From positions 27,476,210 through 27,540,209 of the forward strand of contig OZ316893.1 of NCBI GenBank assembly GCA_973895155.1: a stretch of DNA of 64,000 nt. Reading direction: 5' to 3'. A program made the translations under genes and the position numbers. Below, one piece after another: positions 9,994 to 64,000 of the stretch (the stretch's first letter is position 1; each line of letters starts with the position of its first letter). The notes under the pieces were generated by a model. The model ran no database searches, was not told where the DNA came from, and saw only the letters and a list, made by a program, of their open reading frames with translations. The DNA comes from Marsupella aquatica. Lineage: Eukaryota > Plantae > Marchantiophyta.

Positions 9994-10253
9994 TGTTAAG
10001 TTTACGACGTTCATCCGGTGTACATACGCCACTTGCTGTTCCTTTGTCTGTTCCCCCTTCGCCTAGGTGTTATCTGGGGGGCCTGTATATGTGTGATTAC
10101 CGTTAGATTTAGGGTTAATCTTACTTACGGTCCGATTAGTATTCACTGTGCGGTGCATTCTCTCGCCGACCACTCTCTTAAGGACCAATTCACTGTTCAT
10201 TCTGTATTCTTGCTGAGTAAAAACAAGGGAAGCTGCGCTCGTCAGTTTCTTCA
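9994..10253 (+). repeat. 5' LTR
   Basis: TGTTAAG...TTCTTCA. I see 3 mismatches against the 3' LTR. Confidence 0.95.
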
Positions 10254-10265
10254 TGGTATCAGAGC
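10254..10265 (+). promoter_or_regulatory. Primer-binding site (initiator tRNA-Met)
   Basis: TGGTATCAGAGC immediately after the 5' LTR. Confidence 0.93.
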
Positions 10266-10326
10266 CCAGACTGCCAGAGCACGATCGTGGTGAGAATCTC
10301 CCAGCGTTACTCGCGTGCTGAGCAGA

Positions 10327-13300
10327 ATGGCTGGCGGCCCACAGCGATCATCACAGAGCAGCGGCTCCCAAGCTGCCTCACCAGGCAGCAGCACACAGCA
10401 AGCATCGCCAAGCACTGGACCTCCTGCAACTCAGAATGTCCACTACGAGTTTGACAAAGGCCTCGTCTATGCAGACAAGGACAAGCTCGATGGCAGTAAG
10501 AATTTCATCGGGTGGTCCTTCAAGGTGGAGCGACAGTTCCGCAAGGATAAAGTGTGGTTCGAGCTGGTCAGTCCAGACCCCACGAAGCCAATGCAACTCA
10601 CGCCAGAGCAAATCGAAGAAAAGAAGGAAAGAGCAATCTACATCTTCTCTCAGACGGTCAAGGATCACATCTTCCCTATCGTGAAGAAGTACATTGACGA
10701 TCCTGCCAAGATATGGCTGCAGCTGAAATCGCGCTTTGAATCCGTGGCCATGGGTAAGCAGCTCATCCTCAGGGATAAACTGCCTAAGATGCACATGTCC
10801 GAAGGGAGCAATGTTGAGGAATACATTCGTGAGATTGACAACTTGGTGATGTAGCTAGGTGACATCAATTTCGTTATAGAAGATAAGGAACTAATCCGCA
10901 CCACTCTCAAAGGATTACCTGCGAGCTGGAAGCCATTTATCATGTCGTTTGGTACCTTGCTGCATCAGTTCCCGACACTGTCATTCTCAGACCTTATTGG
11001 TCACCTTGAGGCCGAAGAAATGCAACGGGCTTTACAGAGCAACGACACCGAAGAAGCACTGATGACTAGCTACAACACCCAACGTGGTGGCCCTTTTCGT
11101 GGACGTGGCAGAGGCAGAAACAACTATCGTGGACGGGGACGAAGCGCACCTTCAGCCAGGAAGACCGAAGCCTGCAATTTCTGTGGGCATACTGGTCACT
11201 GGGAAGGGGAATGCCTCGAGAAGATTGAGAGCCAAATCAAGGGCCTACAAATCAAGCATGCGGACATTAAGAAGGGCATGCACCATGCAAACGTGGCTGA
11301 GACGATGGAACCTGAAGAATGTGAGTCTGACAGCGATCCCAACAGAAGCATCTTAGAAGTTAATCTCACAGAATTCAAAGCTAGTCAAGATTGGCTAGTT
11401 GACTCAGGTGCTAGTACTCATATAACTGGGAACAAGAGTACTCTTAGTCACGTTGTTCCATACGCATCCACCTCCAATGTAACTACTGCCTCTGGTGCAC
11501 GCATTCCAGTTGCTGGAAGAGGCAGCACTAAGTTCAATGGAAATAACGTGGTCAAAAAGGTTTTGTACGTGCCTGGGATGACTCGCAATCTCTTGTCGGT
11601 TGGTCAGTTGGCTGATGAAGGCCACAATGTATTATTTAATTCCCGTCATTGCTACGTGTTGGATAAAGAAGATCCTAATAAGATCTTTCTGAGGGCAACA
11701 AGGGATAGACACAATAGTCTATACCGACTAGACTCGTCTATTCAGGGCAATGCCAAGCTATGCTCTGAAATACACATTTCATTAGTAGATAGCACGGACG
11801 AGCATGCCAGCAGTCCTCCATCCAACACACCTACGAGCAATGCTGACAGTGAGACACAAAGCGATGTGTCACCCCTTGAGATATGGCACCAAAGGCTCAG
11901 TCACGTAAACTTCCGCAGAGTTTACAACATGTCTTCAAACAAGTTGGTTGAAGGTCTGCCCAAGCTGCCATTGGAGGATCATGTCTGTGATACATGCATC
12001 ATGGGGAAACAACATCGAGAGTGCATACCCAAGAAATCTGCCAACAGGTCAAAACCACTGCAATTGGTTCATACGGATCTTTGTGGCCCCTTGGTTGTTT
12101 CATCTCTTTCTAAAGCAAAATATTTGCTTACATTCACGGATGATTTCTCTCGCTACACATGGGTGTATTTCCTGAAAGCCAAAAGTGAAACCTTCTTAAA
12201 GTTCAAAGACTTTAAAGCTATGGTCGAAAATGAATTCGACAGCAAAATTCAATGTGTTCGATCAGATCGAGGAGGTGAATACTTGTCCAACAAATTCTGC
12301 CAATTTTGTGACAGACAGGGGATCAAGAGGCAACTCACAGCGGCTCGCACACCTCAGCAAAATGGAGTAGCAGAAAGGAAAAACCGAACACTACTCGAAG
12401 CAGCACGCAGCGCCCACATTGCAAGTGGAGCTCCCACGTTCCTATGGGATGAGCTCATTCAATCAGCCACATATGTGCTCAACAGGTGGGACACTTCCTC
12501 TTTGACCTCCTCCACACCTTTCCAACAATTATACAATGCCAAGCCTGACCTGTCTAGTCGAAGAATTATTGGATGCCTGGCGTACGTTCATGTTCCTAGT
12601 GAACTGAGACATAAGTTGTCAGCAAAGTCCATTCGGACTGCATTAGTGGGATATGACAAGAAATCGAAAGCATACAGGTGCTATGATCCTATCAAAAGAA
12701 AAATCTACATCAGTCGTGATGTTGTGTTCAATGAGTTAAAGATGTTTGACTTCAACATCAAACCATCTCAAGCCTCTGCAGAATTACCATTGATTTCACC
12801 GGCTCAGTCCATTTATATCTCTCCTGCAACACAGGAACAAAATTCCTACTCTGCATCCGAACCTGCATCTCCCGACTCTGTGCCTGTAGATCCTAGTAAT
12901 AGTACTAACTCCAACTTAGAGCCACTTAGCCAGTCGAATCTTCTCTTGAGGTTGAGCCCGCACCAGCTGACTCTACCCCTACGAGCACATTACCATTGCC
13001 ATCCCCAATTCGCAGGCAGTCATCTCGTGCTAGGGAACTCCCAGTTCGTCTACGCCAAGATTACGTGTTGGATTTTCGACCCAACAACCCTGATGTCTGC
13101 CTAGTCGAGACTACCGACCCTGTGAATGAAAACATCACATTCCAGCAAGCATGTTTGGACCCTCAGTGGAATGCAGCTATGAAAGAAGAATTTGATTCTC
13201 TGATCAAAAATGAGACATGGGTCCTCACTGCACTCCCACCAGGAAAGAGGGCCATCTCTGCTAGGTGGCTGTACAGGGCGAAGCCAGAGGTAAACCCCAC

Positions 13301-15082
13301 TCGCACTCTCGGGGGTTTCACTTCCACAAAAATGGCATATCACGTGCGACGAAGTATAGGGTCATTTTATTGGTTCGAAGGGAAGACTTAAGAATTTTCT
13401 GAGAAGAAAAATATGGTCTTTTAAATCCAATTTTGAGACTTATAAGAACATTAGGGTCCTTATAACCAAATTTTTGGAATATTCCAAGAATATTCCAATT
13501 TTATAGGGGTTGAAAAAATAAAAAAATTTCTTACATTTTAGGGGGTCCGAGGCCTAAAAACGTCACAGGTGATGGGGAGACATCCATATAGTGAGACCCC
13601 CGAGCTCGCACTCGACTGAAAGCTCGCCTGGTGGCTCGTGGTATTGAACAGCGCTTTGGAGTTGATTTTGAGGACACTTTCGCACCGGTTGTCAAGTGGT
13701 CAACCATTAGACTGGTTATTGCACTCGCTGTAGCTCTTGGCTGGTCTATCAGCCAAATGGATGTCATCACGGCTTTCTTGAACGGCAAGCTCAAGGAACT
13801 AATCTACATGGTGCAACCACCAGGATTTGAGGTCCCAGGATCCGAAGACCTTGTGTGCCAGCTAAATCGATCCATCTATGGCTTAAAGCAGTCCTCGCGT
13901 GCATGGTATGAGGAAGTTGATCGGTTCCTTCGCTCAAAAGGGTGGACCCGGAGCACTGCTGATCATAATTTGTACTTCATCAACGAAGGAGGGAAAATTG
14001 TTCTTCTTCTTCTTTTCGTTGATGACCTACTCATCACTAGCAATGACGATGCCAAAATTGATGAGGTCAAAGCACAACTCAGCCAACAGTACAAAATGAA
14101 GGATCTGGGCAAAGTCACCAGGTATTTGGGAATAGATTTTGTAGATGTGGCCGATGGAATGTTCATCCATCAACGTGACTACTGCCAAAGCTTCCTGGAG
14201 GAATTCGAAATGCAAGACTACAAAGGAGGAGCGACTCCTCTACCCGAAGGATTTGATGTATCGGCTGATATGCTATCACCTGGCGTGGATGCCACTCACT
14301 ATTGCAAGTTAGTTGGCAAGTTGATCTACTTAACTAACACCAGACCGGATTTGGCGTATGCGGTGGGGATTCTCAGCAGATTTATGTCATCTCCACAACA
14401 AAAACACATGGATGCTGCAAGGCACGTTCTCAGATACATCAAATCCACCATTGATTTTGGCTTACTCTTCCAGAGAACTGGAACTTTGTCTCTCTCAGGC
14501 TACACTGACTCAGACCATGCTGCGTGCAAAGACACTCGAAGATCCATTGGGGCCTATGTGTTCCAATTTGCTGGGGGCACTGTTACTTGGGCGAGCAAAC
14601 GAGAAGCAACGGTCTCACAGAGTACAACTGAAGCTGAGTACAGAGCCCTATCGGAAGGAGCTCGAGAAGCTGTCTTCCTTAGGCGTCTGCTCTCAGAGTT
14701 GAGCTTCATCCCAGAAATTCGGGTGGCATTGAATTGCCAAAATCAGGAGGTGATTTCAAATCTGTCGGTGGCCAGTCAACCCACCTTGCAAGATGCTCAT
14801 CTAAACTTACATTGCGACAACCAAGGCTCAATTAATTTGGCGAAGAACCCCATCTTCCATGCTCGGACCAAGCACATCGAACTCCAGCACCATTACATCA
14901 GGGAAAGAGTCCTGGAAGGAGAAGTGACGCTTAAGTACATTCCAACTGCAGAGCAACCTGCAGATATCCTTACAAAATCCCTTCCAAGATGGAAGTTTGA
15001 GAAACATCGTGAATTCCTTGGCATGAAGTCCCTACGCGACATTCTACCTACCCTGGGTAACGCAGCTACTCGGGATGCGTAG
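10327..15082 (+). pseudogene. Copia gag-pol polyprotein, disrupted
   Basis: Zn knuckle CNFCGHTGHWEGEC, protease WLVDSGAS, integrase HHCC plus HTD/RSD/AER, RT KARLVA...LLFVDDLL, RNase H GYTDSD/EAEY/CDNQ/ADILTK. Lesions: TAG at 10852-10854, a frameshift before about 12996, and a MITE at 13308-13604. Confidence 0.95.
13308..13604. mobile_element. 297-bp MITE with 14-bp TIRs and an 8-bp TSD
   Basis: CTCGGGGGTTTCAC ... GTGAGACCCCCGAG (1 mismatch). TSD CTCGCACT at 13300-13307 and 13605-13612. Excision restores VNPTRTRLKARLVA. Confidence 0.95.
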
Positions 15083-15644
15083 CATCGTGATATACCTCTA
15101 AGCAGTATTCACATCTATATAGCTGACCACCAAAATTGCCTTGCCCCATGCTTCGAAATCGGTGCCCATGGACTGCATGGTCCCCTGCTCGCTGCAACTT
15201 ATCCTGCAAGTATCGTTTCGCCTCGCTTCTCGTCTTGAATGACTTGTACACCTGACCCTTATACCCCTTTACTTGTGGCTCGCAGTCCTCCCAGGAATCA
15301 TACAATCCTGGAACATATCCCCGCACCACTGCATAGTACTTTCGCCTTGTGGTATGGTCACTGAAGTAGTGGGATGTTGGCACAACTGGCTGTATCGTGT
15401 GCTGTGCACCCTGTACATCAGGCGCTCGGGCGACTTTCACCATTACCTGTTTGCCCTGCTCCCCTATCTGTGGCTCGTCCTCTCTCTCGCCCTGGTGCTC
15501 TTCTACCTCAGTCGCACTCGCATTCAACTTCCATTGTACATACTGGAATTGAGTCTCGACCATATCTCCCAGCACCTTGAGTACCAACCTTATCGTACCC
15601 AACAACACCCAGAGCACTTGCAGGCCCACTCTGCTTACATCCAT
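15066..15644 (-). CDS. Antisense ORF of the copia element encoding an RNase H1 N-terminal hybrid-binding (Cauli_VI-like) domain
   Basis: Open ORF between pol and the PPT containing KYYAVVRGYVPGLYDSWEDCEPQVKGYKGQVYKSFKTRSEAKRYL. It has a hydrophobic N-terminus and a C-terminal H...CEYC. Confidence 0.8.
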   Translation of the reverse strand: MDVSRVGLQVLWVLLGTIRLVLKVLGDMVETQFQYVQWKLNASATEVEEHQGEREDEPQIGEQGKQVMVKVARAPDVQGAQHTIQPVVPTSHYFSDHTTRRKYYAVVRGYVPGLYDSWEDCEPQVKGYKGQVYKSFKTRSEAKRYLQDKLQRAGDHAVHGHRFRSMGQGNFGGQLYRCEYCLEVYHDATHPE

Positions 15645-15679
15645 TCTCCACACTTGCTCTGTGCATTTGATGGATTACC

Positions 15680-15692
15680 GGACGGGAGGGGG
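15680..15692 (+). promoter_or_regulatory. Polypurine tract
   Basis: GGACGGGAGGGGG directly before the 3' LTR. Confidence 0.88.
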
Positions 15693-15952
15693 TGTTAAGT
15701 TTACGACGTTCATCCGGTGTACATACGCCACTTGCTGTTCCTTTGTCTGTTCCCCCTTCGCCTAGGTGTTATCTGGGGGGCCTGTATATGTGTGATTCCC
15801 GTTAGATTTAGGGTTAATCTTACTTACGGTCCGATTAGTATTCACTGTGCGGTACATTCTCTCGCCGACCACTCTCTTAAGGACCAATTCACTGTGCATT
15901 CTGTATTCTTGCTGAGTAAAAACAAGGGAAGCTGCGCTCGTCAGTTTCTTCA
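15693..15952 (+). repeat. 3' LTR
   Basis: 260 bp, near-identical to 9994-10253. Confidence 0.95.
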
Positions 15953-17782
15953 AACTCATCCCCAACAATTTCAACTCGATCTGAAGTACTCCGGGCTGGC
16001 ACAGGACTAATCCGAGACCAAGTATCTTCATTGGGGTCATAAACCTCTGATCCAGCACTACCGCAGAACTCATCATGTCCTCCAAATACGAAAATCTTGC
16101 CGTCCATGACCTTACATGCAAATTCCTCTCTGGGCTCGATCATATCTGCACACTGTTTCCATTGCCCTTGCTCAACGAGGTCCAAAACATACATCTCACT
16201 ACTTATCTCAGTGCGCCGAGAATCATATCCTCCAAAGATATATATTTTTCCCTCCAATGACACGCACTGACAAGTTTGGGAACCATGGAGTTTGAACATC
16301 AGAGATGAGAGGAAGTTGACGATAGGAATTGTCCCTCATCGAATAAAGAGCTAACCGACAACTATCGCTCTCACCATCATGACATCTGATGAGAACAGCC
16401 GTCTCTGTAGAGTGGTGATGCACTCTTAGATTGTAGGCTTGACGACTTCGAATTAGACGGCGCCAAGCAAACGAAACTGCCGATAGGGCATACAGGTCTC
16501 TCCAGTGCAGCTTCGGGATAACCTTGTTCAAAGTTATATCATTAGGGATCCCTGGAAGAAGACCTTGAGAGCTTCGCTCAATTTGGGACGTCATCGGAAC
16601 TTGGATCCAGTTGCCTACAGATACCCTATTGATGCGTGATGGATAGACAGTCCTGAATGTTTGGTGGAGCTATCTTAATTGATTAACAGACTTCTTCCGG
16701 ATGAAGTTCACATTATCTGAAAACATCACAAAGTCCTTAATGAACATGAATACCCAGCGAAACTTTCCTGATTCGTATCCTAAGAATACATCTCATATCC
16801 GGAAATCTCATATCCGAAAGTATCAGCTCAAACAAGTCGTGAAAACTACATTTAAAAACGATATCAAGTGTATCATGCCGCCGTTTTACGCGTTTTCCCC
16901 ACTGGATTGAAATCACCCCTCACGTTACATGAAGTGCTCGGTAGAATGCATACCTGGAGGCAGCTAACTGCGCCGAAGCTAATACATACTGCATAACTTG
17001 GCTGAGTTCGTTGCAAGTTGTAACTGCACATTCGATGATCTGCACAAAGAGAATCATCGCCGATCACTTATATCTCCGCCTGCTGAAATCAGTGAGAGAA
17101 TGTGTAACAAGCTCCCTAAAGCTAAGGACCGAAGATTTTTGAAATCAGCCGAAGTAAGAGGAGTTACTGTGAGTCTTCACGAAATCAAACCCAAGTCGGG
17201 CTTGCTGTCACACTCTTGATGATATCAATTGTACTAGCCGTAAGTCTTGACCAAATCAGACCCCAAGTCGGGCTTGCTGCCAAACCTCGATGATATCAGT
17301 TGTAGGCGGGGCAGCGATTGCAGGAGCCGAAGCCCGATGAGATCTCTCAGACTAATAATTCCGCAGCCGTGAGGTCGAGCTCCACTTTGCGCACTGGCAG
17401 GGCAAGAGATCAAATTCGTAGGGCGACTCTTACATTGTGTCACTCTCCCGACATTGTGTCACTCACAGTAAATCGCTAGCTGAAGGGAAGGCTTGGATCG
17501 ATCGATCGCCTGCTGGATCGTGCGGACGGAGGCACGACACGGAGGTGGGAGCGCGGACGAAAGGCAAGCTGGTGCCATGAGGGTATGGGTACGGACCAGT
17601 GGGTCTTTTTTTAAAATTTCTGCAGGGTGTCACTTAGGGCTTGTTGAGATTCCTCCACGTAGTCTTCCTGGATTTGTATGGTCAAAATATGACCGTTAGA
17701 TATATGCAGTGTGAAAACATGACATTGAAATTAATATTTTGAGAAATTCCTATGGTTCTTGTTACTGCACTCCAATATATTG

Positions 17783-18005
17783 TAATGTTTCAAGACCTTT
17801 CCAACAGTATCAAGATAAACAATTTGGGTTCACTAACAAGAGAGTTATGAAAGGTCAATCCTGACCCAATGGGTAACTACCAAAAACAACCAGCAACTTT
17901 GAGATTCACATCTTCTTTGTTAGTAAGCATCAGTGAGCCATCTTGAGCTTTTTGGAAATGATTTATCATGATGACCTTGCCATTAACACCTATAATGCAA
18001 GGTCC
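17783..18005. repeat. Degenerate fold-back repeat related to the flanks of the 20-33 kb element
   Basis: The left half (AATGTTTCAAGACCTTTC...AGCAACTTTGA) resembles 19948-20073. The right half (TTCACATCTTC..TGTTAGTAAGCATCAGTGAG...CCTTGCCAT) resembles 33037-33115. Confidence 0.6.
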
Positions 18006-19064: not shown

Positions 19065-20783
19065 TCTACTTCAAGAATCCTTCTCAGGCAGAACAGGTTT
19101 ATTGTGGAGTTTTCTGATGTTTGCGTTTCACTACATTAGGATGCAAAAAAGTAGTGGGGAATATGAGTTGTTTTAGCAAACCAAATATACTCCTTGCAAG
19201 AATGGCTTTAGTTAGCATAACAGATTTGGAGATTTTTTCCCTTGATTTGGCGTTTTCAGACAAAAAGTATCCATATTTGGAATCACATATTGGATCAGAA
19301 ATTGGATTATTGTGCTGAATTGAGTTTTTGTAACAACAAAAAATGTGATTTCCATCATTAATTTTTTGCAAAATCAAAAATCAAAAACACACTTCTGGTT
19401 AGCAGGTCATACTTCTGGTTTGGTCAGTCAACATGATTGTTCTTAATATCCTGGCATTAGGATTGCACTTTGTTGCAGCAACTATAATGGAACAAGTAGG
19501 TAGTGTTAATTTTCAAAATCCAGATTGCATTGTTCATAGATGCCTGAGCACACATACAAGTTCTGGCATGGGATACCATGAGGTCAAGAATGCGATTGAG
19601 AGTTATCAATGACCTCCATCATCCAATTCTAAATATGAACATCTTTGGCAGCCAAATGCAACCTAACTTGTCAAGGCTTGCATTTGAGGAATGTGTGCGA
19701 ATTAACTTTGCCTTTGCCCTGCTTACCATTCGATCACTTGATAATGGTGTGCCAGTTATCCTTGGTTACTATATGCTGAAAATGCCTTTACCAGATTCTT
19801 GATAGGGTCCAAATGAGATCTGCAGGATCTGCTCCTCCACTGCAACTGTATACAAGATTCAAAAATGAAATTGAAATCATTTTCAGAAATTTATAATTAT
19901 TTTTCTTGTTAGTCAATGCCAATTGGAAATCTCAAGCTCATTGGAAATAATGTTTCAAGACCTTTCAAACGACATCAAGATCAACATTCTAGTCTAGTAA
20001 CAACAAAGTTATCAAAGGTGATCTTTGCCAAATTAGTCCGCAGCTACAATAAACAATGAACGAGCAACTTTGAAAATATCACCCTATTCATTAAAACTGG
20101 AATTTCTCTAGTCCAGAAGTTGACCTTCAAATTTCTTATTTTACCCCCAAAAGTTCTATAACTTGTTCCCCAAAAGCATACATTTTAGTGGCCAAATATA
20201 CACTTTTTGAGGTCTAAAATTACAATTCTAATGCCCAAATTATTAATTAAATAATTCAGTTATCAATTATTAATACTTATTAATTAAAAGACATTAAAGT
20301 GTTCTTATTATATACAATATAAACAATGAAAAAATAGAATAAGACAATATAATAAATTGAAATGACCATGATAACCAAGTTACACAAAGTAACACGAAAG
20401 GTAAACCGATGATGTATTATAAAAGTAAAAAACCTATTTTTACAGGGTCGAGACCACGTCTGCCCCAATGCAGGCTCTAGATGGTTTTGACCGGTTGTTG
20501 AATGTATATCAATTACTATGTAAAAACTTATGTCAAGATTATCTCGACCCAAATGTAGGGTCCACATAATTTTGACCCGTTGTTGAATCTATATCTCTAG
20601 CTATTCCCTTTGTAGAGGGTCTAGACCCAAATAACCTTTTTCTGAGAACATATCTACAAGTAAATGAGGATCAACAGCATCTAGACTCAAATGGATACTA
20701 CGCATAGCTTCACTCTTTTTTCGAGTAAGAATATGTATATGTACAACTCACATCGTAACTGTTCAGTGTAGGGTCGAGATAAT

Positions 20784-22058
20784 CTAGACCCAAATCTCAT
20801 GCTCCTCCACCCCGCAGAATTCATTTGAGCAAGTAAACCTAGACCTTGACGGGTCATATTTCATATCGCGATTACAGAAATTGAGAGGCTTTCTATTCCA
20901 GAACTTTGTTGTGAGGTCCCTACACCTCAAGACTTCCAAAACAAATCCCCGATGATTGTCTCTGTAGGGTCCTGTGTACTGATATCCAATTAATGTCTTT
21001 GCAAGGTCGTTGATCGCCTCCTCCGTCAATTCCTCCATTGGTGGTAATTGTTGCACTTCATTTTTGATATCCCAGGGAATTTCGTCCGCTGTAACATCCA
21101 AGACTGTATGGATAACATTGGGAACCCATACCATACTACCCCACCTCTCCGACAACAGAGCATAAATGGCAGCCTGTTGATCCCTGTCCGATAAAACATT
21201 GATCATAGACCACTTTGGATGATTGATAAAAAGATAGTGCTGAAGATTGAAGGCATGATACAATTTCCTGAGCAGAGGCCACAGTATTTCTGGAAAGAAT
21301 GTATCATCCGTGGAGTGATGCGAAAATGAGGAAGGAAACAACCCACAATTCTCTGGATTTGCAAACGCCTTCATTGGAGTGTCATCAAGAAGGAGTGTAT
21401 TAGTTTCGTCGTATAATCCACCATAACGTTTCCAAACAACTCTCAAATCCTTCAAAAGAATATTTGCCTTCCCATCGGTAATGTCAGGCCTCTGGATTCT
21501 AGTATCGAATGTATCTTCTTGAGTGAGAATAAACTTGAATTGCTCTCTCTCTTCTTGATTGAAGATCAAATGAATCATTTCATCCGTCCTGGGTTTCCTT
21601 GCACAAGTCCAAATGGCAAGATCAAATAATGAAAAAGCTGCGATTAAGAACTCGTGAAGATGGGGTCGCTCAACATACATAAAGTTAAACCCTCCACGTC
21701 TCCCCCAGTGGACACCATTGACACTTGTCGCACTACGGCGCGGTCCGGAACTTGGCGTTTTGACAGAATCCCAACACATTTTGTTGAGGTCAAGAATCAA
21801 TAGCTTCCGTCTGATTGGACCGTGAAGTGGAGGCAAGGGTCCTGCAAAGTACGAACACCAACGTTAGAATTGTGGGAGATAAAACAAAGGAATGCTCGAG
21901 ACGATCTCGATCATCACAAGTGAATGAACAACAGTCAACATCATACCTGTTGTTTGTGGAAGGTCAGTAGTTGAAGAAATCTCAGGACATCTTCGGAGAT
22001 TATTGTCGACGCACTCCACAATTGGTAAGGGCCCGCCTATTTCTGTGAAGGTAGACAT
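20784..22058 (-). CDS. FCP1/NIF-type HAD phosphatase-like protein (exons about 22058 or 22042 to 21947, and 21841-20784); may be the 3' part of the upstream gene
   Basis: KLLILDLN, ERPHLHEFL, LAIWT, LLKDLRVVW and NTLLLDDTPMKAFANPEN are FCP1-homology motifs of the DxN-type subfamily. A phase-1 intron, ACAG|gtatga ... ctttgcag|GA, joins the exons in frame. Confidence 0.8.
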
Positions 22059-22112
22059 AATAATTTAGACGGCTGAATTTCCGGACAGTTCAAACTAACT
22101 TGGGTTTCAACC

Positions 22113-25100
22113 TCACGTGCTGAAAGACCCAAATTCATCTAGAAGGTTATCTCCTAGTTGGTTTTGGATGTCCAAATTTATCCCTCCGGGAAGGGTCTCA
22201 ACAAGAGCTGGCTCAGACCAAATTGGCACTAATTTGAACTTATCCATCCTATACTTTCTAGATCGAATAATCTTCTTAGACTGCTCTATAGAGACTTGTT
22301 GACCTTTTGACGGTCCATCAGTCCAAACATAATGAGTAGCACTTGCTTTGAGTGATTTGTAACCAGTTCTACCGATTTCAGTCCCCGGTTTCCTAACAAA
22401 AGGGAGAATTACGGGGCTTCCAGTAGAAGAATCTGTGAAAACAAGCTTATTCTCTGAAGTGCAAAACATTTGGTCCAAGGGAGAGGACGATGCACCTGCC
22501 TCGTCCTGAGGGGGAGTATGGAAGCCACTAGCTTTCTTAGTAGAGAAAATCTCATCCAGTTGAGGAGGGCTTGGAATTGGTTGGCTAACTGCATCCTGCA
22601 GGGTGGATTCCCAGCCAACATCCAAGGTTGAAGACTGTTGTTCACGTTGTGCATCCCCAAGGCCACCCGATGAAGGAACACTTGGAACATCGAGATCATC
22701 TCGAGCATCATTTCCAAATTCAGGGAGTATTTCACCCTCCTCTTCCATGTAGCTTGTAATTTTCGGGCCCTCCGTTTTGCGATGCTCTAAATTCTCCGCA
22801 AATACTTCCTCATAAACACTGGCTTCCACTGGAGCTATGTCTGCGGCCGCCTCTTCTATAAGAACGAGGGGACCAGCAGTAATTTCCTCAGATGGTAACG
22901 GCTCCTTGGGTGGCACATATAAAACTTGCTTGTTGTCATGAAGGAGCTGAGCAAAGGCTTCAGTGAATTCCATCTCTTGAGCTGTGTCCGAATACACAAA
23001 ACAATCCCGACCAAGAATGACACAAGCTTTCAATGTCTGTCCTCCAGAGAAGAAATCCAACACTGTATGACCTGGGCACGAGAAATAATCAACAAGACGC
23101 TTTGTCATTCGCAAAGGCTTTGCTCTCGGATTTACAAAGCCACCACGCCGACCGACCATCTCATAAGATGGGGCCATCTTCTCCAAAACTTTGACATCAA
23201 CAGTGGATTCATCGAGCTTCTCTTTCCCCTTTGATTGGTCTTTGTTGTTCCCAGTAGGGGCCTTCAAAGGCAAGACTGTGAAGTCTTTGTCCCACTTCTC
23301 ACTGTAGTTCCAGAACGCATAAAAGTCATCAAAGAAAATTTGGGACCAGTCTGGTTCCTCTTCACAACAAATTCCCCCAAAGATGATTGAGTCCCGAGCT
23401 CCAATGAGAAAATCTCCCTCCTCCTTGGGCACCTGATCACGGTAGTAGCTCCCGTACTCCAGCTTCGTGTGCACTTTCTTCTCACGACGAATCTTTTCAA
23501 AGGCACTCTGAATCTGGCCTATCAATGGGCCTTGACGGACAAAAAAGATTACTAAGACCTCCGTCGAGTTCGCCATCTGCAAGCAATACTCCAGCAAGAC
23601 AAAAATTTCGGCATCTGTCCACTGCCGTTGTCGAATACGACCAAAATTGACAATGGAGAGTCAACAACCTCAGGCTTCATTGTCCTCATCAAATTATCGC
23701 TAAAAAATGTGCGATAAGGAGTATCCTCCATTGAAGGCAATCTGCCAAATACCTTGCAATATATCTGCTCAAGCCTCACAATGAGACTTTGCGGAAATGG
23801 GTCTTTTGGCCTATTTCTTTTTAGGAGGTTGGAAATCCAAACCTCTCCAGCAAGTTGTCTAAGTTTGGGCAACTCACCACGATCCATAAATGCAGGCAAC
23901 AATTGAGTTAGCTCAAACCAAGTGAGTGAATTGGTAAACCGATCCGGATACTTCAAAACGAAGTACTCCACAATTTTTACCCTCAGCTTGGTCATGACTT
24001 TGAAAGTATGAGCCATATCACTCATTGATTGAATATCAGATTTGTTGGTTTGGTCTTTCTTCAATAAAACCTTCTGTTGTTGAACGGCAGTAAAAACTTT
24101 CAGAATGTCGTCATTACTCAGGTCTCCTTCAAAGCATCTAAACAATGCCGGCGTAATCATTTTTGTTGTCCGGGCTTTCCCATTTATTTTTGAACCTAAC
24201 TCCCCTAGACCATCCGGAAGAAGTCCCTTGACCCAATCGATGCACATTTGTCTCCAAGTTCGGAAGAGGTTCTCATCCGAAAACAACAACCAAAAAATAT
24301 TCCTCAGATCGGATTTTCCAATCGTTATTTTGGCAAGGGCCATAAAATCCTGGTCCAAACAGTACAAAACAAATCTGAGGCTCGAGACGATCTCGAGGTA
24401 GAATTAAGGAACTATGATAAAATTTATGGGGAATACATGAAGATAAATCAAATATAGAAACTTGACCTCGAGGCTCGAGACAATCTCGAGCTCGAAGTGG
24501 ATTTGAGTTCAAATATACCTAGAACTTTTGATGATCCGTTAGTCTATTGGACCCAATCACGGGTCTCTCCGGACGGCCACACTCGTCAAACTGTCGACGC
24601 GCATGGACCATAGTATCAAGAAAACAGGACTCATACTCCATTGTCTTATTAACAGCATTTGCCCTTTGTGAGTGTTGAGCAAGTATTGTCCTTGGAGTTC
24701 TGTCCGAAAGAATTCGTGACGTTCGATATTGCAGACTCTTCGCGACCTCCTTCAACTTTGCATCGCTCTTAGCCCAACCTATGATCCAAACAGCTGCTTT
24801 TGCCGAGTGTTGTCCACTGATTGCAAGGAACTGCACCTTCTTATTCTTAACACCCCACTCAAACTCCTTTCGATCCTCAGCAGTATTCTCATAATGGAGC
24901 AACTGCAAACTCTCTCTTGAATACGGAATTAAATCCGCCACAGCTGGTACCATTCCAGGGTTTCTAACCATGGATTTTGCGACCTCCATGGCATGGTCTT
25001 TATTGAACATCCTATAAACCAAAACTGCAGATGGCGAATCTATACTGGTGACAGGAATGTTAAAAGTTTCATTCATGCCAAATGTGTAATACTCCTCAAT

Positions 25101-27012
25101 CTCCTTAAGAACTTCGGCTCCTTCCTTAACGCTCTTTTCTCCCGGAGCATCTCCTGGAGTGCCATCATCATCGGTATGTGCATTCACACCCGAGGAAGAT
25201 GCCGGAATGAGATCTACCTTGGGCGATGCGGAATTTTTTGGCGGATGAGCCTTCTTCGATTTGATTTCGGGTTTGTCAACCCTCTTCCTCTTTTGAGACA
25301 CCTTCGCTTCATTTTTGTCCGAACCGGAGGTCTTGTCTCCTGCAGCTACGGATTTCACTTTACCTGTTTGTCTCCGATGAGACAACACCCACTTTTTACA
25401 AGCATCTTGGTCAAATTCTTCGGCTCCAAACACAAAATCAGAGGATATAGATTCAAACTCCCCCAATTTGGATTCCAACATTAGTCTCAAAACCTTCCAC
25501 GTGAAAGGAGTCGTGAATGCATCATCGCGATCAAGCCCATACTTCCGACAATAAAGGAATCCAAAAATTATGTCCGCTCCAGATATAGGAGTATCTTCTA
25601 GCAAATTACTTGTAGTGAAACCCTCGGGGAAGAAACCCATTGATATCACGCTCAGTTGTTTCCTGGCTGCACGTTCAATGTTAAGATCGCAAGAGTAGTT
25701 TTTGGCGTGAAGTCTAATTAGAGCCCACTTCCCTGTTTCGTGGTTCTCCACCGTCAAAACCATGTCCTTACCGTTACTCGTCACAATAGAAACAACAGGC
25801 CCTAGAAGGCTGCACACCAGAGGATCGACTGATGGAGACCTCGTCTTCACACAAATAATAGTTCCTTCCATGTCTTCAGTTTCAGCAAGCTCAATGGCCC
25901 AACAGAATCCAAATAAACTCTGTCCAGGGCAGGAAATCTCAATTGCATGTTCATCTTCGACTACCAGATTAGGCGATCCCAATTTCGCACCTGTACAGCA
26001 AAAATATAGCAATTGTCAGGAACATGTACTACAAAACCAAGAAACAAATAGGTGGCTCGAGATGATCTCGATCTTCAGTTTACTATTCAGACATGTTCCA
26101 ATGTCATTTCATCCGTGGAATTTAAAAAGAGATTTCAAACCCAAGAATCCCAGGAAACACAATAGGCTCGAGATGATCTCGAGCCACCATCTGTTTAAAA
26201 GAAAAAGATAAGGGCTCGAGATGATCTAGATCCACATATATATCAGTTGAGGCTTTATTCCAACTAGTCCAAAAGGCAAGTTTGGATCACATTGAAAAGG
26301 ATATTAGTAATTGAAGTAGACAACAAGGAGTCCTTCCAACTGGAAGAAATTGGCCAAGGGAGACGAATGAACATAAGGGAAGACGGTGTGGGATATATTC
26401 GGCTCGAGACGATCTCGAGCCTAACATATCAAATGAGTGATCTGAATATCATATTCAACAATTAACATCATATTCAATCAACGATAAAAAATCCACTTTC
26501 TCCATTAACTTCGGATACCCACAAACCCGTTCGGATGTCAATGATCAGAACGAGTTGGAGGGCACAGAAGTCCCTGGAGGAAGGAAATTTTAGATATTTT
26601 GGATATAATGTTCAATTTTGAAGGGTAAGGGTTTCCAACTTGAAGAAATCTCACTAGGTCACATGCAGGAATTGCATATTGGCTCGAGACGATCTCGAGC
26701 CTCATGCCACTTACATCAAATGCAAAATCAATTAATAGATCACAACTTTTGAAACAAAGTATTGGAGAAAACATCAATAGGCTCGAGATCATCTCGAGCC
26801 TCAACGGCATCCAAGGAATCCAAAAACAAGTGGACCAATTGAAGCTCGAGACGATCTCGAGTTAAACCTGAACAGAACAAAGATGAAGAATTACGTTTAA
26901 TCGTGCGATGGATCTGATGTGCTGAGTCTAGATGGGTCTGGAGCTCTTCGCCAACGGTTGCAAGGTTGTACTCAGCGAAGTCCTCCTTGGAGAAATCTAC
27001 AACAGTCGACAT
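22113..27012 (-). pseudogene. Multi-exon gene: ParB/Srx-like domain plus N4/N6 DNA-methylase-like fold
   Basis: Exon 25990-24519 (acceptor tgtacag|) has IPVTSID...R.FNKDH...FLAISGQHSAKA. Intron 24518-24350 is preceded by TAG at the junction. The exon from 24349 has a frameshift at about 23590 and then NPRAKPLRMTKRLVDYFSCPGHTVLDFFSGGQTLKACVILGR. Upstream exons from ATG 27012 are tentative. Confidence 0.7.
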
Positions 27013-28165
27013 GGCTGGTGATGAGAGGAACGTACTACGGGCTGAGAACTTAAAACAAATCTCGACCCTAAAAAGAAAATCTCGACCCTATCGAAGCTCG
27101 AGCCTAAACACAAAATCTTGACCCTATAAAATCTCGAGGAAAAAACCTAATCTCGATCCTCTGCAATCTCGAGGCTAATAGAAGGATCTCGAGGCAAGAG
27201 CGCGAAACGATCTAGAGGCAAGGAGGCAAGGGATGCGAGGAGGCGAAGAGGCAAAGAGGCGAGGAGGCAAATGTGAAAATGGGGAGTTCAAAACCCCTGA
27301 AGCCACTATAAGCCCCTCGGGGGTCGGCCTTGGCCGTGCCAAGCGTGCCAGGGCTCGTGCAGGCTCAGGCAGGCTGCCACGCAACCTACTGAGTGCGTAC
27401 AGTCATTATTACGGTCACACGTGTTGTCATTATTGTTATCCATACTTCAGCCCTGCCGCAAGTTTAGCCGTGACACAAGTTCAACCATTCCGTCTTATTG
27501 CCCTTTTTGTCTGTCAGGGTTTTATATATTGCTTCTCCTTGCTCTTCAGCGGGTCATTCTTCTCATTTCGTTTCACCGCTCGCTCGTTTCTTCCTCTGCC
27601 TCTCTGCTCTCTCTCCCTCTCCCTCTCCCTCTTTCTGGCTCTAGATTTGTGCTCTGATCTCTTTCTGTTGTTCTTTTCAAGGATTTTGGAGTCTACGTTT
27701 GTGTTTAGGATATTTCAAGAAATTGTCATTTTAAGCCCCGAAGGAGGTCTAAAATAATTGAGCTCCTATCTTTTAGAAAACCGAACCTTTTCAGCTTATA
27801 CTAATGTCGGTCAAAATCCATTTGGAAGCCTTTTCCCTCTATTTGATGGCCTTTTAGAAGCTTTTTCTCAGTGTCTGGAAGTAAACTGGGAGCCTACTTT
27901 CTTAATTGCACCAAATCATTCCTCTAGATCATCTAGAGCCATTTATATGTTCTTATTTTGGGTGGCTTATTATTCCTAATAGTTTCTTTGTCAAATACAA
28001 TGTCCTTTTTGGCTCGAGATCATCTCGAGTCATAAGTTTGGTCCTCAAACTTATTCACTTTCCCCTTCTTTCTAATGGTGCATTTGGTTTTCCTTCTTAT
28101 AATAAATGTTTTTAGAGTGTCGGAGGTATAGAATCTTAGTTCGATATTCAGTGAGATTCATATTT

Positions 28166-28394
28166 TACCTCGAGATCGTCTCGAGCTAAATACTTCTGAA
28201 TTTTTACATATTGGTGTTTTTGGTCCCTTTTCTACCTCGAGATCGTCTCGAGCTAAATACTTCTGAATTTTTACATATTGGTTGTTTTGGTCCCTCTTCT
28301 ACCTCGAGATCGTCTCGAGCTAAATACTTCTGAATTTTGACGTATTGGTGTTTTTGTCCCTCTTCTACCTCGAGATCGTCTCGAGGTAGAAGAG
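28166..28394. repeat. 67-bp tandem repeat (about 3.3 units), each unit carrying the palindrome
   Basis: Unit TACCTCGAGATCGTCTCGAGCTAAATACTTCTGAATTTT..., with a period of 67/67/66 bp. Confidence 0.92.
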
Positions 28395-28517
28395 CTTCTT
28401 ATTTTCTCTATCACACAATTTTGTGGGATAAACTTCTACACTTGGGTTTTTGTAGTCACTTTACCTCGAGATCATCTCGAGGTAACTACATCCAACGGTT
28501 TGGGCCACGTTTTCAAA

Positions 28518-31500
28518 ATGGGGAGTTTCTCTCGAGGGGACAAGGTGTGCCTCGTAATCGACGGAGTGGAAGTTGCTTGCGGGACGGTCCTCAAGGTTGA
28601 CCCGGGTGACTCAGTGCGTAATGTTGATTTGGGAAGTAATCGTATAGGAGTTCTCATTGAGAAGTGCTATGAGGGATCACGGGAAATTCCTTACCCTTTG
28701 CCGCCGATCAGGACCCTGTTTGATGCTGTCGACTCTTGCATTATTTGGGATGCCCCTTTTGCATATTTGAAGTCACAGTCAACTCCAGCGACAACGAAAA
28801 TGGATGCCTCCTGTTCTACAAAGGATACGGTTCCGGGTTTTGTACCAGAGAAATCGTCGGTGGAAAGTTTTGGAGACTCGATTGTATCTGGCGATGAAGT
28901 CGAGGTCTGGATCGGCAATCAGATTGTGGCTCGTGGATTTGTGTTCAAGACGAATCCCGATGAGACATGTCACAATGAAAGACTTGGCACTTCTAGGATT
29001 AGTGTGAAAATATGTGAAGTTTTTCAAGGAAGGGAGAGGTTACCCTTTCCTCACAATGGAGCCGATACCGTTCAGGAAGCATTGGATACTTTTGTATTGT
29101 GGAATTTAAAGGATGTTACTCGGAGGAGTTCTTCCCGGGATATGCTAAACAACCTGTCCAGACAGGATGTTTTTCAAATTATAATTTCAAGGATTATAGT
29201 TTGCGTTCTAATTGGATGACCGAGGAGGTGGAATTGTATGCTGAGGATAATCGGACCAAAGTGGGGGTTGGCATCATCACAGTTCCTTTCGAGTCAGGTG
29301 CAATTGATGATGATGTTCTTGGACCAGATCACGTTGGGGTTGCTGTCACACGCGTGATTGACCCTCTATTTTTCCCAAATATCTCCCCGGGAGTGCCTGG
29401 TCTTGTTAGGTGGGCCGTCCGTTCACTTTTGCTGATATCAAGGGGTATTTTTCTTCTGGATCTCATTGAAGAGATTTCTCCGAAACCAATTATTGATGGT
29501 CGAGATCATCTAGAGGTAGATATGAAAGGTGACACTGAGTTTTTGAAGCGCCCGTATAATTTCATCAAGAGAACAAAGGTCAACCCAGATGAAAAAAGGA
29601 AGAAGCACTTGGAGTCTCGGGCGATACTGAAAATCACAGAGGAGGAAATCGACTCCATCCAAAGAGAAGGTTGTTGTAAGTTGAAGTGTTGCCTCAGCAT
29701 GCCGAGAGAAGACCTACAGGCGATAAGGAGGGAATACCATGGGATGTCAAGCGACAACAAAACTAGTCACATTCTCACTTTTTTTGGCTGTAGGGAGAAG
29801 GAAGTGGAGACAAGGATATTTTGTTGTAAGAAGTAGACTTGTTTGCAAGGGTGCATTTATTAAAATGCATGGATTCAGCACTGCCAAGTATTATGATTAC
29901 AAAAATCAATATGAAGCAGGTTGCACTGTTGGATTCCACGGAAACAAGGGTTCACACAAGACACGGGGAAGCACCTTGCATGCTCGTGCTTTGTTGGAGT
30001 CCATTCTAACCCAAAACGAAGAACCCATGCCGCATCTTCCCTATGGAGGGTCTCACGGGACTGACACGGTTGAGTACAGACTTCCATCTTGTTTCACGAA
30101 GAAAGAGATTTTTGAGGAGGTATACTCAAAAATGGAATTAGATGGCTACGTGAAGGTGAGTGAAAACACTATGTATAAACTCTGGAGTGAGTCCTTCATG
30201 AATTTTGACTTTCACAAGGGAAGTGCATTTGCAAAGTGTACACTTTGCACTGAGTTCAAAGATCAGTTGATGCGGGAGAAGAGAAAGAAAGAGCGTTTAG
30301 AGATTGAGGAAAGAAGAGCTCGCCATCTTCGTGAGCAAATGTCTAGGAGATATGTTTACTATGCTCATAGGGTTCTTGCGAAGAAGGATCTTGAGAACTA
30401 TCTTTGCATTATACATGACAAGATGGACCAGGCCAAGACATGGATCCCTAGGTTGGTCCCCACTCCTAAATCATTGTCTGGTAGTGGTCAACCGCTCCCC
30501 ATTGCGCTCACTGGGATGTTGACCCATGGAAGGGATCCCGGAGTGTATGCTCACTTCAGTTTTACTGGGCTTTGGCCAGGAGATGCAGACTTCACAGTGA
30601 CATCATTGGCCAAGTGCCTTAGAGATCTGGAGGATTACAAGGGGGACAAATCTGGAGACCTCCTTTAAGGATTATATTGGGCTACAACGAGGCCAATTTT
30701 TCAATCTCTTTTGGACTTTGAAGCATTTCTCGCAGGTTACTTAGAACCCAAAAAAGTCTCAATTGCTAGATTTCAAGGAGCTGAAGATGACCAAGACGAC
30801 TTTGGTGTTGATCCCAAGGCTACGTCTACCTCTTTCAAACCATTGCCAAGGCACCTGACCTTGCAAATGGATAATTCAGGGAAAGATAACAAAAACCAGT
30901 ACGTGATGGCATTTTGCAGTGAGCTTGTTAGTAGAGGGGTTTTTGAAACAGTGCAGATGTCGTTTCTCATGGTTGGTCACACCCATGAGGATGTCGATGC
31001 ATTGTTTTCAAAAGTATCCAACCAAGTGAAGTACAAGGAGGTTTCTACCCTCTTGGGGTTGATGGCTGAGGTTTGGGAGTGTGAAAGCATTCATCCTGTG
31101 CCACGGTTGATCCAAGAGGTTGCAGCTTACAAAGAGTTTTTGAAAACTTTCAAGGTAAAAGACATAGAGGGTCACTCAAAACCAGTGGCATTTCTTTTCT
31201 CTATGAGAGATAATGTTCCAATATATCAATACAAAGCACATGTGAAACAACCTTGGTACCCTCCAACCGGAAGGTCCATTTGGAGAACTGATTCCAGCAC
31301 CAATGCTCTCATTTTACCAGAAGGTCAACCGTTTGCAAAACCCATCTCCGGGGATGTACGAGGCAAGGTTGAAGAAATCATCTCATTCCTTAATCGTTAC
31401 ATTGAGTTTTTGAAGAAGAGCTGTAAGGATGAGACCTCTACAGCATATCGTGAGCGGTTTCCTTTGGTAAAATATTGGGAGATGGTGGTGCAAGTATTAT

Positions 31501-32204
31501 CTGGGGAGCTTACAATTGAAGGGGAGGCAGAAATATAGTTAGCATTGACATATGAATTCTGGCCAAAAACCAACCACGGAACTGGTTACAAGGTTAATAG
31601 TACAGGAACCTCTGAACCATTGGGGGAGCCTAGTAGTAGTACACAGAATCCACAAATGGTGGAGCTTAAGAATGAGTACCTGGAAGAGATGGAGGATCAA
31701 GCTGCAACATTTGTTGGTGCTCGACACGAGCGAGAACTTGCACGTTGGATTCCTCTGCAGGACATTCAAGAGGGTCACTTTGTATTTCTCCGTCCAGAGG
31801 ATGAATGGGAAAAGAAGAATGGGAAAGAACGTTTCTGGTTGGTGAGAGCTTTGGGTGTTGTGGACCCAAACCATGAGGTTCCTTCAGAAGACTTGCAATG
31901 CAATGAGAATTCTCCTACTAGTACACGGTATGCTCCTATGTTCCAAGTGCAATGGTGGAGGCCTAAACATGGTAAGCATGATGCACCGGATCATGTGCGA
32001 TATTCACGTTGTTTTCAGACCACTAAGACTTGGGAGGTGGATCCTGGGTTTGACAGTGCCACTGAACGTTGGCAATTTGCTAATTCTGCTATGTATGGAT
32101 TCAAGTCACGCTCTAGAGAAGAAAATATAATTGATAGAGGTTTGACCATTCCCAAGAATGTTTTGAAAACACTCAAAACCTACATGGAAGGGATTGTTGA
32201 GTAA
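28518..32204 (+). pseudogene. Transposase, Sola1/DUF7869-like RNase H fold, with three N-terminal Tnp1/En-Spm-like repeats
   Basis: Motifs CTLC, CIIHDKMDQ, LQMDNSGKDNKN and FLMVGHTHEDVD. Five ORFs join into about 1230 codons through two frameshifts (about 29150 and 29800) and two in-frame stops (30666 TAA, 31536 TAG). Confidence 0.8.
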
Positions 32205-33121
32205 GTCAAATGTTTTTTAGTAGTCACTCTGTCAGAGTGAGGGAGTCTAGTATGTCAATTAGTTTGGAATTAGACATGTCAGAGTGAGGGAGTCTATGTC
32301 AATTAGTTTGGAATCAGACATGTCTTTAGTACTTACTGAGTGTTGGTTAGTACTAAGTACTAGTATATCTATTTAAGGAACTAATTATTATAATATTTTG
32401 GGATACTAGTTTGAATAGGTGGAGGTAATTGGACTTGGATACCTTTATAATTGCTTCAATTAATTATTATATCAATACAGACTATATATTACATGAAGTC
32501 TTAATATCCATGATAGGATGTGAGTGCCTCTTAGTACTGTCTAGTAAACCTTAGTTTCAACTCGAGTTGCTTAGAATGTACTAACAAATTACTTGTTTGA
32601 ATGGATATTTAAACTAAACCCTAAGTAGAAGGTTAATTTAGCTAGCTAAGGGTAGAGATCATATTGAAGCTTTACTAGTTATATGGGTAGAGATCATATT
32701 ATTTGAAGTTTTACTAGTTATATGGGTAGAGATCATATTGAAGCTTTACTAGACACTTATATTCTATTAGTCAAATTGAATCAATGTAAGTAAATTCTAC
32801 TTCTTATCCAACATATTTTACATTATTATCACCCAAATGTTTTTCTTTAGAATCCAAATTAATATTTCATTTTCTCCTATGTACAATCTTGATCCCCCAA
32901 ATGTACAACATCTGGTGCCCAAATGTACAACTCCCACTGCCCAAATGTACAATTCTTGTGCCCAAATATTTTTTTTTTGGTGCCTAAATGTCCAAAGATC
33001 AAAGAATTTTCCAGTTTTAATGAATAGACTGATAAATTCACATCTTCCTTGTTAGTAAGCATCAGTGAGTGCTCTTGAGCTTGAACTTTAAAAGGATTTT
33101 TCAATACCTTGCCATCACTAC

Positions 33122-37259: not shown

Positions 37260-39129
37260 CAATGCCTCTCCTTGATGTAAGCCTTTTCTGTCGCTGGCCG
37301 CACCCCTCAAACCAATCTTTGCACATCTAGAGGAGAAAGCCTGCTTGGAGACGATTATCTGTGCAATCCAGAAGTGGTGCCAACATGTAAGGTTCAGACC
37401 CGCTGGAACTGTATTAGTTTTTAGGGGTCCTACATTTCGATAGTTTCGGTGACAATCAAGCCGCCTTCAGACAGACAACCTGAATTTGGGCGATGCCCAA
37501 CTGTATTTGTAGATATTTATACCCAGATAGCCATCTTCTGGAAAGTAGCAGAAAAAGTATCGTAGCAGTTTATTAGTGCCGACATGTCCAAGATTGGACT
37601 AGCGCAATAGTCCAGCAGTCAAGTCGACAATGCTTCCCTGAACTTGGAAGTAATTCCGTTTCCAAGTGATTGTGCAAAAGGTTTGAATCCGTCCTCCTAT
37701 GTGCGAAGGGCATTTCTGCTGAACCGTCCACTTCTGTGATGATTTTAATCCGTGACTCACAGAAATAAGAGTGTTGATCTGTAAAGACAAAGTAGTTTTC
37801 TAAGGGACATTCATTTTTTTGCATTGCTAGTAAAATGGTGGTTTCTCTCTCTTTATTGTTTCCTATTCTCCTGATGAGGTCCACTGGTCCAGCCCTTGAG
37901 CAAGAGGGCCGATTAGCCCTATTTGATCTCTGTAGGTAGGATGGAAGAGTTCGATTGGAAATGTACTTCAGATATTATACACATTCCCAGATATCAGTTT
38001 ACACAAGGGAAGTTTTCTCCAATTTGAAAGCTATTGACAAAAAGCTTCTGCCAGAAAAGATCAGTTCATTCACTAGTGTGTAACAGTCTGTCACCTTCAT
38101 GGATATATTCTTCTTAAACGGCTCTGTTAGACTGCGATGCTCCTCGTGAAGTTCTCAATAAGCTTGAACCTTTTTACAGTTGTTTGTAGACTTCGTATCA
38201 TTCCTCAATTTCTTGTAAGCAGTTTATGGAGACTGCAAAGTGAGATAAATGGGTTGAGCTACATAAGGCTGTGATGGGCTGGTTGAAATTTTGTTCCATT
38301 GCTCTCTGGTGCTTATCCACAGCAGCAAACAAATCCACAATATCCGCTTTCAGGGGCGCCATTTACTAGGGATGGGATCTGTTAATCATCGTCTGCATTT
38401 GACTGATCAAACTGTACTTTCTGCCGCCTGTGCTCTGTATTCAATTCCAATTCATCTGGATTCTTCCATCATTAAATTGCTGTATAGGATGCTGAGTTAA
38501 AGCTCAAGAAGGTCGTGTTCAAGGTTTACATCTTATTCCGCTTTCCGCACACTTGGGTATGTCCTACCTGATTGCCACTGGACTTTTTGAGGTGTCAACA
38601 GTTCGATTAGTCTACTAGTGGGTAGGAATCGTCACGGTGCATTTCGGTCATTTGTAATGCTGTACATTAGTTAGAAATGATGAAAATTTTATAAATTTTA
38701 AACTTTTTCTAACTCAAGGTACAATCTAGTTACCTTTTGTAGCAATTTAGATCAACTGAACACTTTACTTAACGTTATGCTTCATTGGAGGCTATTGCCT
38801 CTATTGGATAAGGATCGACAATATAAATCATTGCTCTTTACATGCTACCAAGAAAGAAGATTGGACATCATTGGAGAAGCAATGCAGGCTAGAAGATTCA
38901 AGAACCGGCCTCCAAAACATTTCTTCAACAAGAATGAGCTCTGTATACAATTATCACAATCAGCCGATCTCTGCTATTTTAGTTAAATAGCTATCATGGT
39001 CAGAAAAGTCTCATACTTTTTCAGGAGGTAGTAGTTGCGTAGTAGAATCATCCCTGCAAGTTTCATCTCAAACCGACATGTGGTTTGAAAGTTAAAATTA
39101 ATTTAGTTTTACTGTTTTTCATATAACCG

Positions 39130-63863: not shown

Positions 63864-64000
63864 CGCTAATAGATTTGGCCGGTGGGAGAGGTTTCCAAGT
63901 GGTAACGAGGCTGATGTGCGTCACAACTAGTTGTCACAATCGGGTCAGAGGTTGCCTCAATCTGTATCCGGCGGCGTCAAATTCATGCAATGCTGGCGAA

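Follow-up and report, generated by a model that had tools for sequence, protein, structure and literature searches.

A liverwort DNA transposon carries a gene joining predicted ParB-like and beta-class methyltransferase folds, with altered catalytic motifs and internal palindromes

The window analysed here, a stretch of 64,000 nucleotides of Marsupella aquatica (contig OZ316893.1), contains a DNA transposon whose genes and repeats are listed in Table 1. Its 25-bp terminal inverted repeats differ from one another by two mismatches. The surrounding host segment is duplicated (17700-17990 versus 19870-20077 and 33034-33120): the second copy holds the transposon, and the first, which aligns with the left flank and has 47 bases in common with the right flank, is the empty site. 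When the element's 5.2-kb gene was compared with four public runs, each returned between 468 and 2,684 contigs at 85-100% identity, numbers that fit a multi-copy family, depth not being a measure of copy number. No RNA data set appeared among the runs listed for the gene, which carries no information on its expression. Terminal inverted repeats, a target duplication, a transposase gene, an empty site and multiple copies together identify a TIR DNA transposon.

Table 1. Features of the transposon and its cargo gene (positions in the window).
Feature	Position	Strand	Remarks
DNA transposon, 12,956 bp	20078..33033	.	25-bp TIRs, AAAT flanks, paralogous empty site at 17893
Left terminal inverted repeat	20078..20102	+	AAAT at 20074-20077
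FCP1/NIF-like gene	20784..22061	-	PF03031 E 1.4e-16; behind the ParB-methylase cargo gene
19 palindromes, CTCGAGA-N3-TCTCGAG	21895..29515	.	19 versus 0.16 expected
Cargo gene: acidic disordered linker and small conserved C-terminal domain	22113..22929	-	C-terminal domain ~22460-22116
Cargo gene: predicted beta-class amino-methyltransferase-fold domain	22930..23719	-	motif IV site 23660-23637; motifs X-I from 23132
Cargo gene: 22-bp deletion site (frameshift)	23658..23668	-	just before motif IV; from longer contigs of other copies
Cargo gene: conserved all-helical middle domain	23720..24349	-	homologue matches and model
Cargo gene: GT-AG intron, 169 nt, phase 0	24350..24518	-	two palindromes; comparison of homologous gene calls
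Cargo gene: exon 2 (N-terminal region, basic linker, ParB-like domain)	24519..25990	-	in-frame TAG at its end, 24521-24519
Cargo gene: predicted ParB/sulfiredoxin-fold domain, box II SGQHS	24639..25097	-	model pLDDT 84, Foldseek, VIA Z 8.2 with PadC
Cargo gene: predicted first intron, 904 nt	26894-25991	-	GT/AG splice signals and phase only
Cargo gene: predicted exon 1, 118 nt, phase 1	26895..27012	-	GT/AG ends and matching phase only
DUF7869 transposase-like gene	28341..32204	+	PF25273 E 1.2e-39; divergent from cargo gene
Right terminal inverted repeat	33009..33033	-	AAAT at 33034-33037

The DUF7869 transposase-like gene, of a type that we take to be linked to Sola, is broken by frame changes and by in-frame stops at 30666 and 31536. 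In its 5' region (28341-29836, plus strand), a small beta-rich unit, V..G.V....P...C.N..LG..R+.V.+...+.G....P.P, is repeated about three times; Pfam gave no match to it above the cut-off. The AAAT on both sides of this single insertion agrees with the AWWT target site, a hallmark of Sola1 according to the available text of PMC3845634. The FCP1/NIF-like gene probably has a short, inferred first exon followed by an intron. At the site where we presume that a phosphatase motif DxDx(T/V) should stand, it reads LILDLNK, and its Riccia relatives read LILDVEG; judged from these residues, the protein may be a second altered enzyme of the element. A NIF domain follows the methylase within one annotated chain in 4 of 26 homologues (alignment A3, Riccia annotations), which shows this gene order to be old.

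The cargo gene had been predicted to contain introns, and one indeed falls within 22990..25070 (24518-24350). The TAG of exon 2 directly precedes the GT donor at 24518, and exon 3 begins at 24349 behind a T-rich acceptor. Nine homologous contig gene calls stop shortly past this boundary, seven of them reading F/Y, Q/E, V there, and the models of P0056, P0062, P0005 and Riccia continue straight across the site; calls that end in the intron and models that read across it together indicate that the intron is real. P0056 and P0062 could represent either intron-less copies or spliced transcripts. The TAG itself is most likely a nonsense change, the homologous calls having mostly Q or E at this codon. 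A second lesion lies downstream, where long contigs of other copies hold 22 more bases in three runs (706 versus 684, 481 versus 459 and 382 versus 360), ruling out an intron at ~23750-23620 as the source of the frame change. With a stop before the intron and a 22-bp deletion, the present copy of the ParB-methylase gene is a pseudogene.

This deletion also corrects the original prediction at one point. The SILVVFDNGS segment, proposed there to occupy the place of motif IV, is present in the DNA but is read in the wrong frame; the correct frame gives LSIVNFGR. Among the best-supported variant rows (55 coding differences, a biased list), four of the seven located at 23555-23660 are silent in the downstream frame, as against one of seven in the SILVVFDNGS frame, and at position 23648 most of the depth of other copies encodes D in place of N. 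The same biased list contains 16 amino-acid-changing variants out of 24 in the helical domain, and 8 silent variants out of 13 in the methylase domain.

Relatives without these lesions allow the architecture of the protein to be followed. In P0056 (1,009 aa), matches to exon 2, to the helical and methylase parts and to the C-terminal domain follow one another in this order, and P0062 matches exon 2 and the helical and methylase parts and aligns at the C-terminal domain. By these sequence matches, the ParB-like and methylase parts are joined in single database chains, in line with the fusion proposed originally. The small C-terminal domain, HYxWxxGPxKG ... LG..DE(Y/F)GSF, follows the acidic linker in many homologues; it reaches a pLDDT of up to ~90 across ~40 residues and has no family name. 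All homologues with a named organism are from liverworts: in the search with the ParB region, 21 of 31 matches come from Riccia sorocarpa and one from Calypogeia fissa, further homologues from both species were obtained in other searches, and many of the Riccia gene models are partial.

The stretches that had been compared by eye with a ParB block, FLAISGQHSAKA (24830-24795), IPVTSID and FNKDH, lie on the minus strand as described. For this block, the proposed fold was recovered by structure prediction, and Pfam, PHROG and the other sequence profiles applied gave no match. Folded with 26 sequences, the region of the window gave a model of mean pLDDT 84, for which the first 26 of the 32 Foldseek rows listed are ParB, Noc, PadC, KorB, sulfiredoxin and SbnI (best E 1.5e-3); viral ParB-like proteins match the model with E down to 3.8e-4. 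VIA aligns model residues 10-162 with PadC (Z 8.2, rmsd 3.5, 100 aligned), followed by KorB (Z 7.9) and SerK (Z 7.3) over a background of 4.4. The predicted structure, the sole support for this assignment, thus points to a ParB/Srx superfamily fold. In language-model features, the ParB-like part (P0056 residues 60-260) resembles fungal DUF3723 clusters (0.95) and a ParB_N cluster (0.91), and the Pfam DUF3723 profile does not match the region; DUF3723 may itself contain a ParB-like fold.

By position, Arg38 (kept in 18 of 20 rows) and Asn156 and Asn159 (24 of 26 each) match ParB boxes I and III, features that the family has in common with the ParB, Noc and KorB clamps, together with the N-terminal fold and nearby palindromes. 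The box II arginine of these clamps is absent, however: box II reads SGQHS, with Ser at the position of the GxxR arginine in 26 of 26 rows. This arginine is required for nucleotide binding in ParB, as far as the available portion of PMC12704722 describes it, and its replacement throughout the family makes canonical CTP switching doubtful. No ParA partner was found among the open reading frames of the element. The start of the helical middle domain resembles the helix-turn-helix of ParB by eye only, and hhalign of the helical region against two ParB proteins only was not significant (probability 0.13%). The helical domain, modelled as part of a longer chain, gave no clear fold match, the best Z being 5.4 to designed helical proteins.

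The methylase part could be placed both by profile and by predicted structure. The block of motifs X-I (NPRAKP...ILGR, minus strand), recognized earlier by its likeness to N6/N4 methylases, matches PF01555 above chance (E 2.3e-6) and four PHROG methylase families (E 5.5e-8 to 4e-5). The fold was modelled on P0003, an intact relative 40% identical, with 61 sequences. Residues 197-471 of this model match CcrM (Foldseek E 7.4e-8; VIA Z 18.3, rmsd 3.4, 219 aligned), followed by M.BceJIV (Z 16.2), MboIIA (15.9), RsrI (15.8), PvuII (15.7) and N4CMT (14.6). Beyond the 20 best rows, Z drops to 5.4. The family profile matches RsrI (E 5.6e-12), and with an E cut-off of 10 it did not hit the N4CMT structures. 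An atlas search with the methylase region found unnamed clusters at 0.92-0.94 and N6_N4_Mtase clusters at 0.86-0.88. The predicted structure, with an hhalign probability of 98%, shows the permuted beta-class arrangement in which motif IV precedes motif I. D231 of P0003 ends the strand 227-231 and is aligned, at the same probability, with the Asp of DPPY in phage and metagenome methylases.

The catalytic motif itself is altered across the family. The available sections of PMC10406627 describe how, in CcrM and N4CMT, the first residue of motif IV and a proline bind the amine while the tyrosine stacks on the base, and those of PMC8885841 report that changing SPPY to APPA abolishes N4CMT activity. 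None of the 30 aligned rows has [DNS]PP[YFW] at this site, so that the non-canonical motif IV suspected in the present copy extends to the whole family, with no DPPY or SPPY in any of these rows. The forms are DFSR (7), DVTH (4), DLTH (4), DFGR (3), DFTR (2), DLAR (2) and eight single forms, counts in which ten rows are Riccia paralogues and therefore not independent, and which come from an alignment (A4) that includes P0047, not a member of the family. The Asp is found in 26 of 30 rows, the exceptions being the present copy (N), P0041 (E), P0085 (G) and P0045 (S, probably misaligned), and an Arg, His or Lys stands three residues later in all 30. In counts that omit P0047, DFFSGG, one residue shorter than DPFxGSG, is the commonest motif I (32 of 49 rows), with F in 47 and G in 44 of the 49, and 49 of 50 rows have the Lys of motif X. 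In place of the motif II acid stands Ala, Ser or Val, and motif III is partial, the Riccia proteins showing a weak form of it. Alignment A2, which misplaced the exon-2 proteins, was kept out of the folds and counts. The ParB-like and methylase domains thus appear to keep their folds and part of the pocket and to have lost the textbook catalytic residues, which does not prove inactivity.

A captured passenger gene in plain decay would account for the stop, the frameshift and the broken transposase of the present copy, and the many partial Riccia models could be read in the same way. We nevertheless regard this as very improbable. The same replacement motifs recur in proteins that are only 20-45% identical, which argues for a conserved change rather than decay; whole domains are modelled with confidence, and the Riccia annotations preserve the order of the genes with NIF.

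Another reading, somewhat unlikely in our estimation, is that of an active amino-methyltransferase whose motif IV is a variant one and which places 4mC or 6mA on the palindromes, so that the element marks itself. The Asp would then grip the exocyclic amine, with Phe or Arg/His standing in for the Tyr stack. The complete predicted fold over ~220 residues, the Asp at the strand end, the basic residue three positions later, the common DFFSGG and the silent majority of listed methylase-domain variants are all consistent with such an enzyme, and unusual strand-4 variants occur in other eukaryotic clades according to the accessible text of PMC4738411. Against it, both prolines and the stacking aromatic residue are gone in every row, motif II lacks its acid and the Riccia proteins have a weak motif III; the same accessible text judges the adenine methylases carried by DIRS elements inactive on similar grounds.

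The candidate target is a palindrome that occurs repeatedly inside the element (Table 1) and is absent from the other 51 kb of the window. Thirteen of the 19 sites are perfect, and the rest have at most two mismatches; all contain TCGA, and most also GATC. Seventeen are non-coding: ten are intronic (seven in the predicted first intron, one in the inferred NIF intron and two in the 169-nt intron) and seven lie between the divergent genes, the remaining two being imperfect sites in coding DNA. Three of them form a 67-bp tandem array. In the 169-nt intron, diverged copies still match across the palindrome while the sequence on either side of it has drifted apart (loose ends at 24372-24373, 24403 and 24414). 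The sites are internal rather than subterminal: with up to two mismatches allowed, the outermost 1.8 kb of the element on the left and 3.5 kb on the right contain none.

Repeated motifs within an element are commonly bound by its transposase, and here seven of the sites immediately precede the transposase gene. It is conceivable, if unlikely, that the transposase or a host factor reads the palindromes, the ParB-methylase protein serving as a transposition helper or scaffold directed at another target, be it chromatin, the ends of the DNA or the NIF-like protein. ParB proteins and beta-class methylases are, on the other hand, natural palindrome-binding dimers, and the long site-free stretches at both ends also argue against the transposase. 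A point in favour of the helper is the resemblance of the ParB-like part to DUF3723, described in the available part of bioRxiv 2021.12.13.472469 as a conserved cargo of Starship elements.

Based on the above data, we tentatively propose, at somewhat below even chances, that the cargo protein is an element-specific DNA-binding regulator, VANC-like and built from prokaryotic parts, that acts without canonical N4/N6 methylation. In this proposal, the ParB-methylase protein, rather than the transposase, would read the internal palindromes of its own element, binding as a dimer through the helical domain. The methylase domain would serve as a SAM-binding or base-reading scaffold, and binding would regulate the chromatin or expression of the element, the effect being anti-silencing as with Arabidopsis VANC. 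This regulator is supported by the motif changes, by the internal, non-coding position of the palindromes, by their VANC21-like layout and by the match of diverged copies across the palindrome of the 169-nt intron. Three points speak against it: the helix-turn-helix is seen by eye only; the Asp, the motif I loop and the motif X Lys are strongly kept, which would also fit an active enzyme; and most of the listed helical-domain variants, from the biased list above, change the amino acid. On their defining motifs, the domains fall outside the catalytic N4/N6 methylases and the ParB CTPases, while apparently sharing both folds.

A bolder version, which we hold to be improbable though worth stating, is that a phage-type ParB-methylase has been rebuilt in liverwort transposons for ParB/parS-like self-recognition. 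The protein would load at the palindromes, spread, and either shield the element from host silencing or use a new catalytic motif to write a 4mC/6mA mark private to the element. The DUF3723 proteins of fungal Starships may represent a parallel recruitment of the ParB fold.

The comparison with VANC is one of arrangement. In the available text of PMC5735166, the VANC proteins of Arabidopsis VANDAL elements are likewise accessory proteins of DNA transposons, with motifs in introns, intergenic DNA and tandem repeats, and it is only in this layout that the VANC21 motifs of VANDAL21 match our palindromes. VANC motifs are 8-9-bp direct repeats with demonstrated binding, whereas those of the liverwort element are 17-bp palindromes with binding inferred only. 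Pfam scans gave no VANC-like sequence match.

In domain order, the closest parallel is found in the ParB-N6_N4_Mtase fusions of phage and prophage ParB-terminase loci, which have the ParB fold followed by a beta-class methylase and are common in phages according to the accessible part of PMC12704722; three phage examples were confirmed by Pfam. The phage proteins, of ~410 aa, carry GxH(Q/T)(R/L) and DPPY, whereas the liverwort protein, of ~1,250 aa, carries SGQHS and DFxR and has in addition a 200-aa helical insert, a C-terminal domain and an intron. Because the folds and the domain order are common to both, we infer a prokaryotic origin for the ParB-methylase gene, with no donor found. A tree places twenty family rows on one side of a branch, as a separate clade, and 15 other methylases on the other (support 100/99); its outgroup, a small convenience sample, names no donor. 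P0047, a metagenome methylase fragment with a canonical motif I, lies between the family and the prokaryotic set and is a possible lead to relatives. Insensitive pattern scans of prokaryote genomes and viral contigs returned no relative and, in the viral contigs, no paired palindrome; tblastn against phages matched only the X-I block (E 0.2-1), and a protein search of candidates of 903-2575 aa found no relatives. One locus from the metagenome scan proved spurious, tblastn with every protein of the element being empty at E up to 0.1.

Other eukaryotic methylases differ from the family in class or setting. Marchantia MpDN4MT1a/b and rotifer N4CMT likewise have the beta-class fold in a eukaryote, but they keep SPPY and are active host genes, whereas the transposon-borne family lacks SPPY; the available portions of their descriptions give MpDN4MT1 without extra domains and describe neither MpDN4MT1 nor N4CMT as transposon cargo or as fused to ParB. 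Methylases are also carried by retroelements: the Dam-like enzyme of DIRS is inactive (PMC4738411) and the DNMTs of Symbiodinium retrotransposons are active C5 enzymes (PMC5890265), as far as the accessible text of each source goes. Those of DIRS, Symbiodinium and Klebsormidium belong to other methylase classes, sit in retroelements instead of a TIR element and lack a ParB fold. The literature searched, in main texts and with most subscription papers outside its reach, contained no description of the family and no paper pairing DUF7869 with transpos-, and none of the literature matches listed pairs DUF3723 with ParB.

Few systems are known in detail by which transposons evade host silencing. 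Here, a prokaryote-type ParB-methylase protein has been retained by a family of plant DNA transposons alongside a candidate target site, a pair that is directly testable. Liverworts already depend on a bacterial-type 4mC methylase that is essential. A further beta-class family, this one mobile, is relevant to the routes by which such enzymes come into plants and to the reading of 4mC/6mA signals in liverwort genomes. If the protein did prove to be an active enzyme without DPPY or SPPY, the catalytic rules of the beta class would be widened.

The flanks of the transposon within the window hold a copia element, kelch-repeat pieces and a PCO/ADO gene. The copia-type LTR retrotransposon (9994-15952) has 260-bp LTRs that are 99% identical, and its antisense open reading frame at 15069-15674 encodes an RNase H1 N-terminal domain (E 7e-19). 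An intron-less open reading frame for a 2OG-Fe(II) oxygenase (62895-63920, minus strand, 342 aa, E 4e-10) lies in a GC-richer stretch; we take it to be of fungal type, possibly through gene transfer. A 1.7-kb element at 59548-61249, with long inverted ends and internal 35-bp repeats, is probably a non-autonomous transposon. A small repeat-rich element at 39058-39655 has GACGCTTT units and 60-bp direct repeats.
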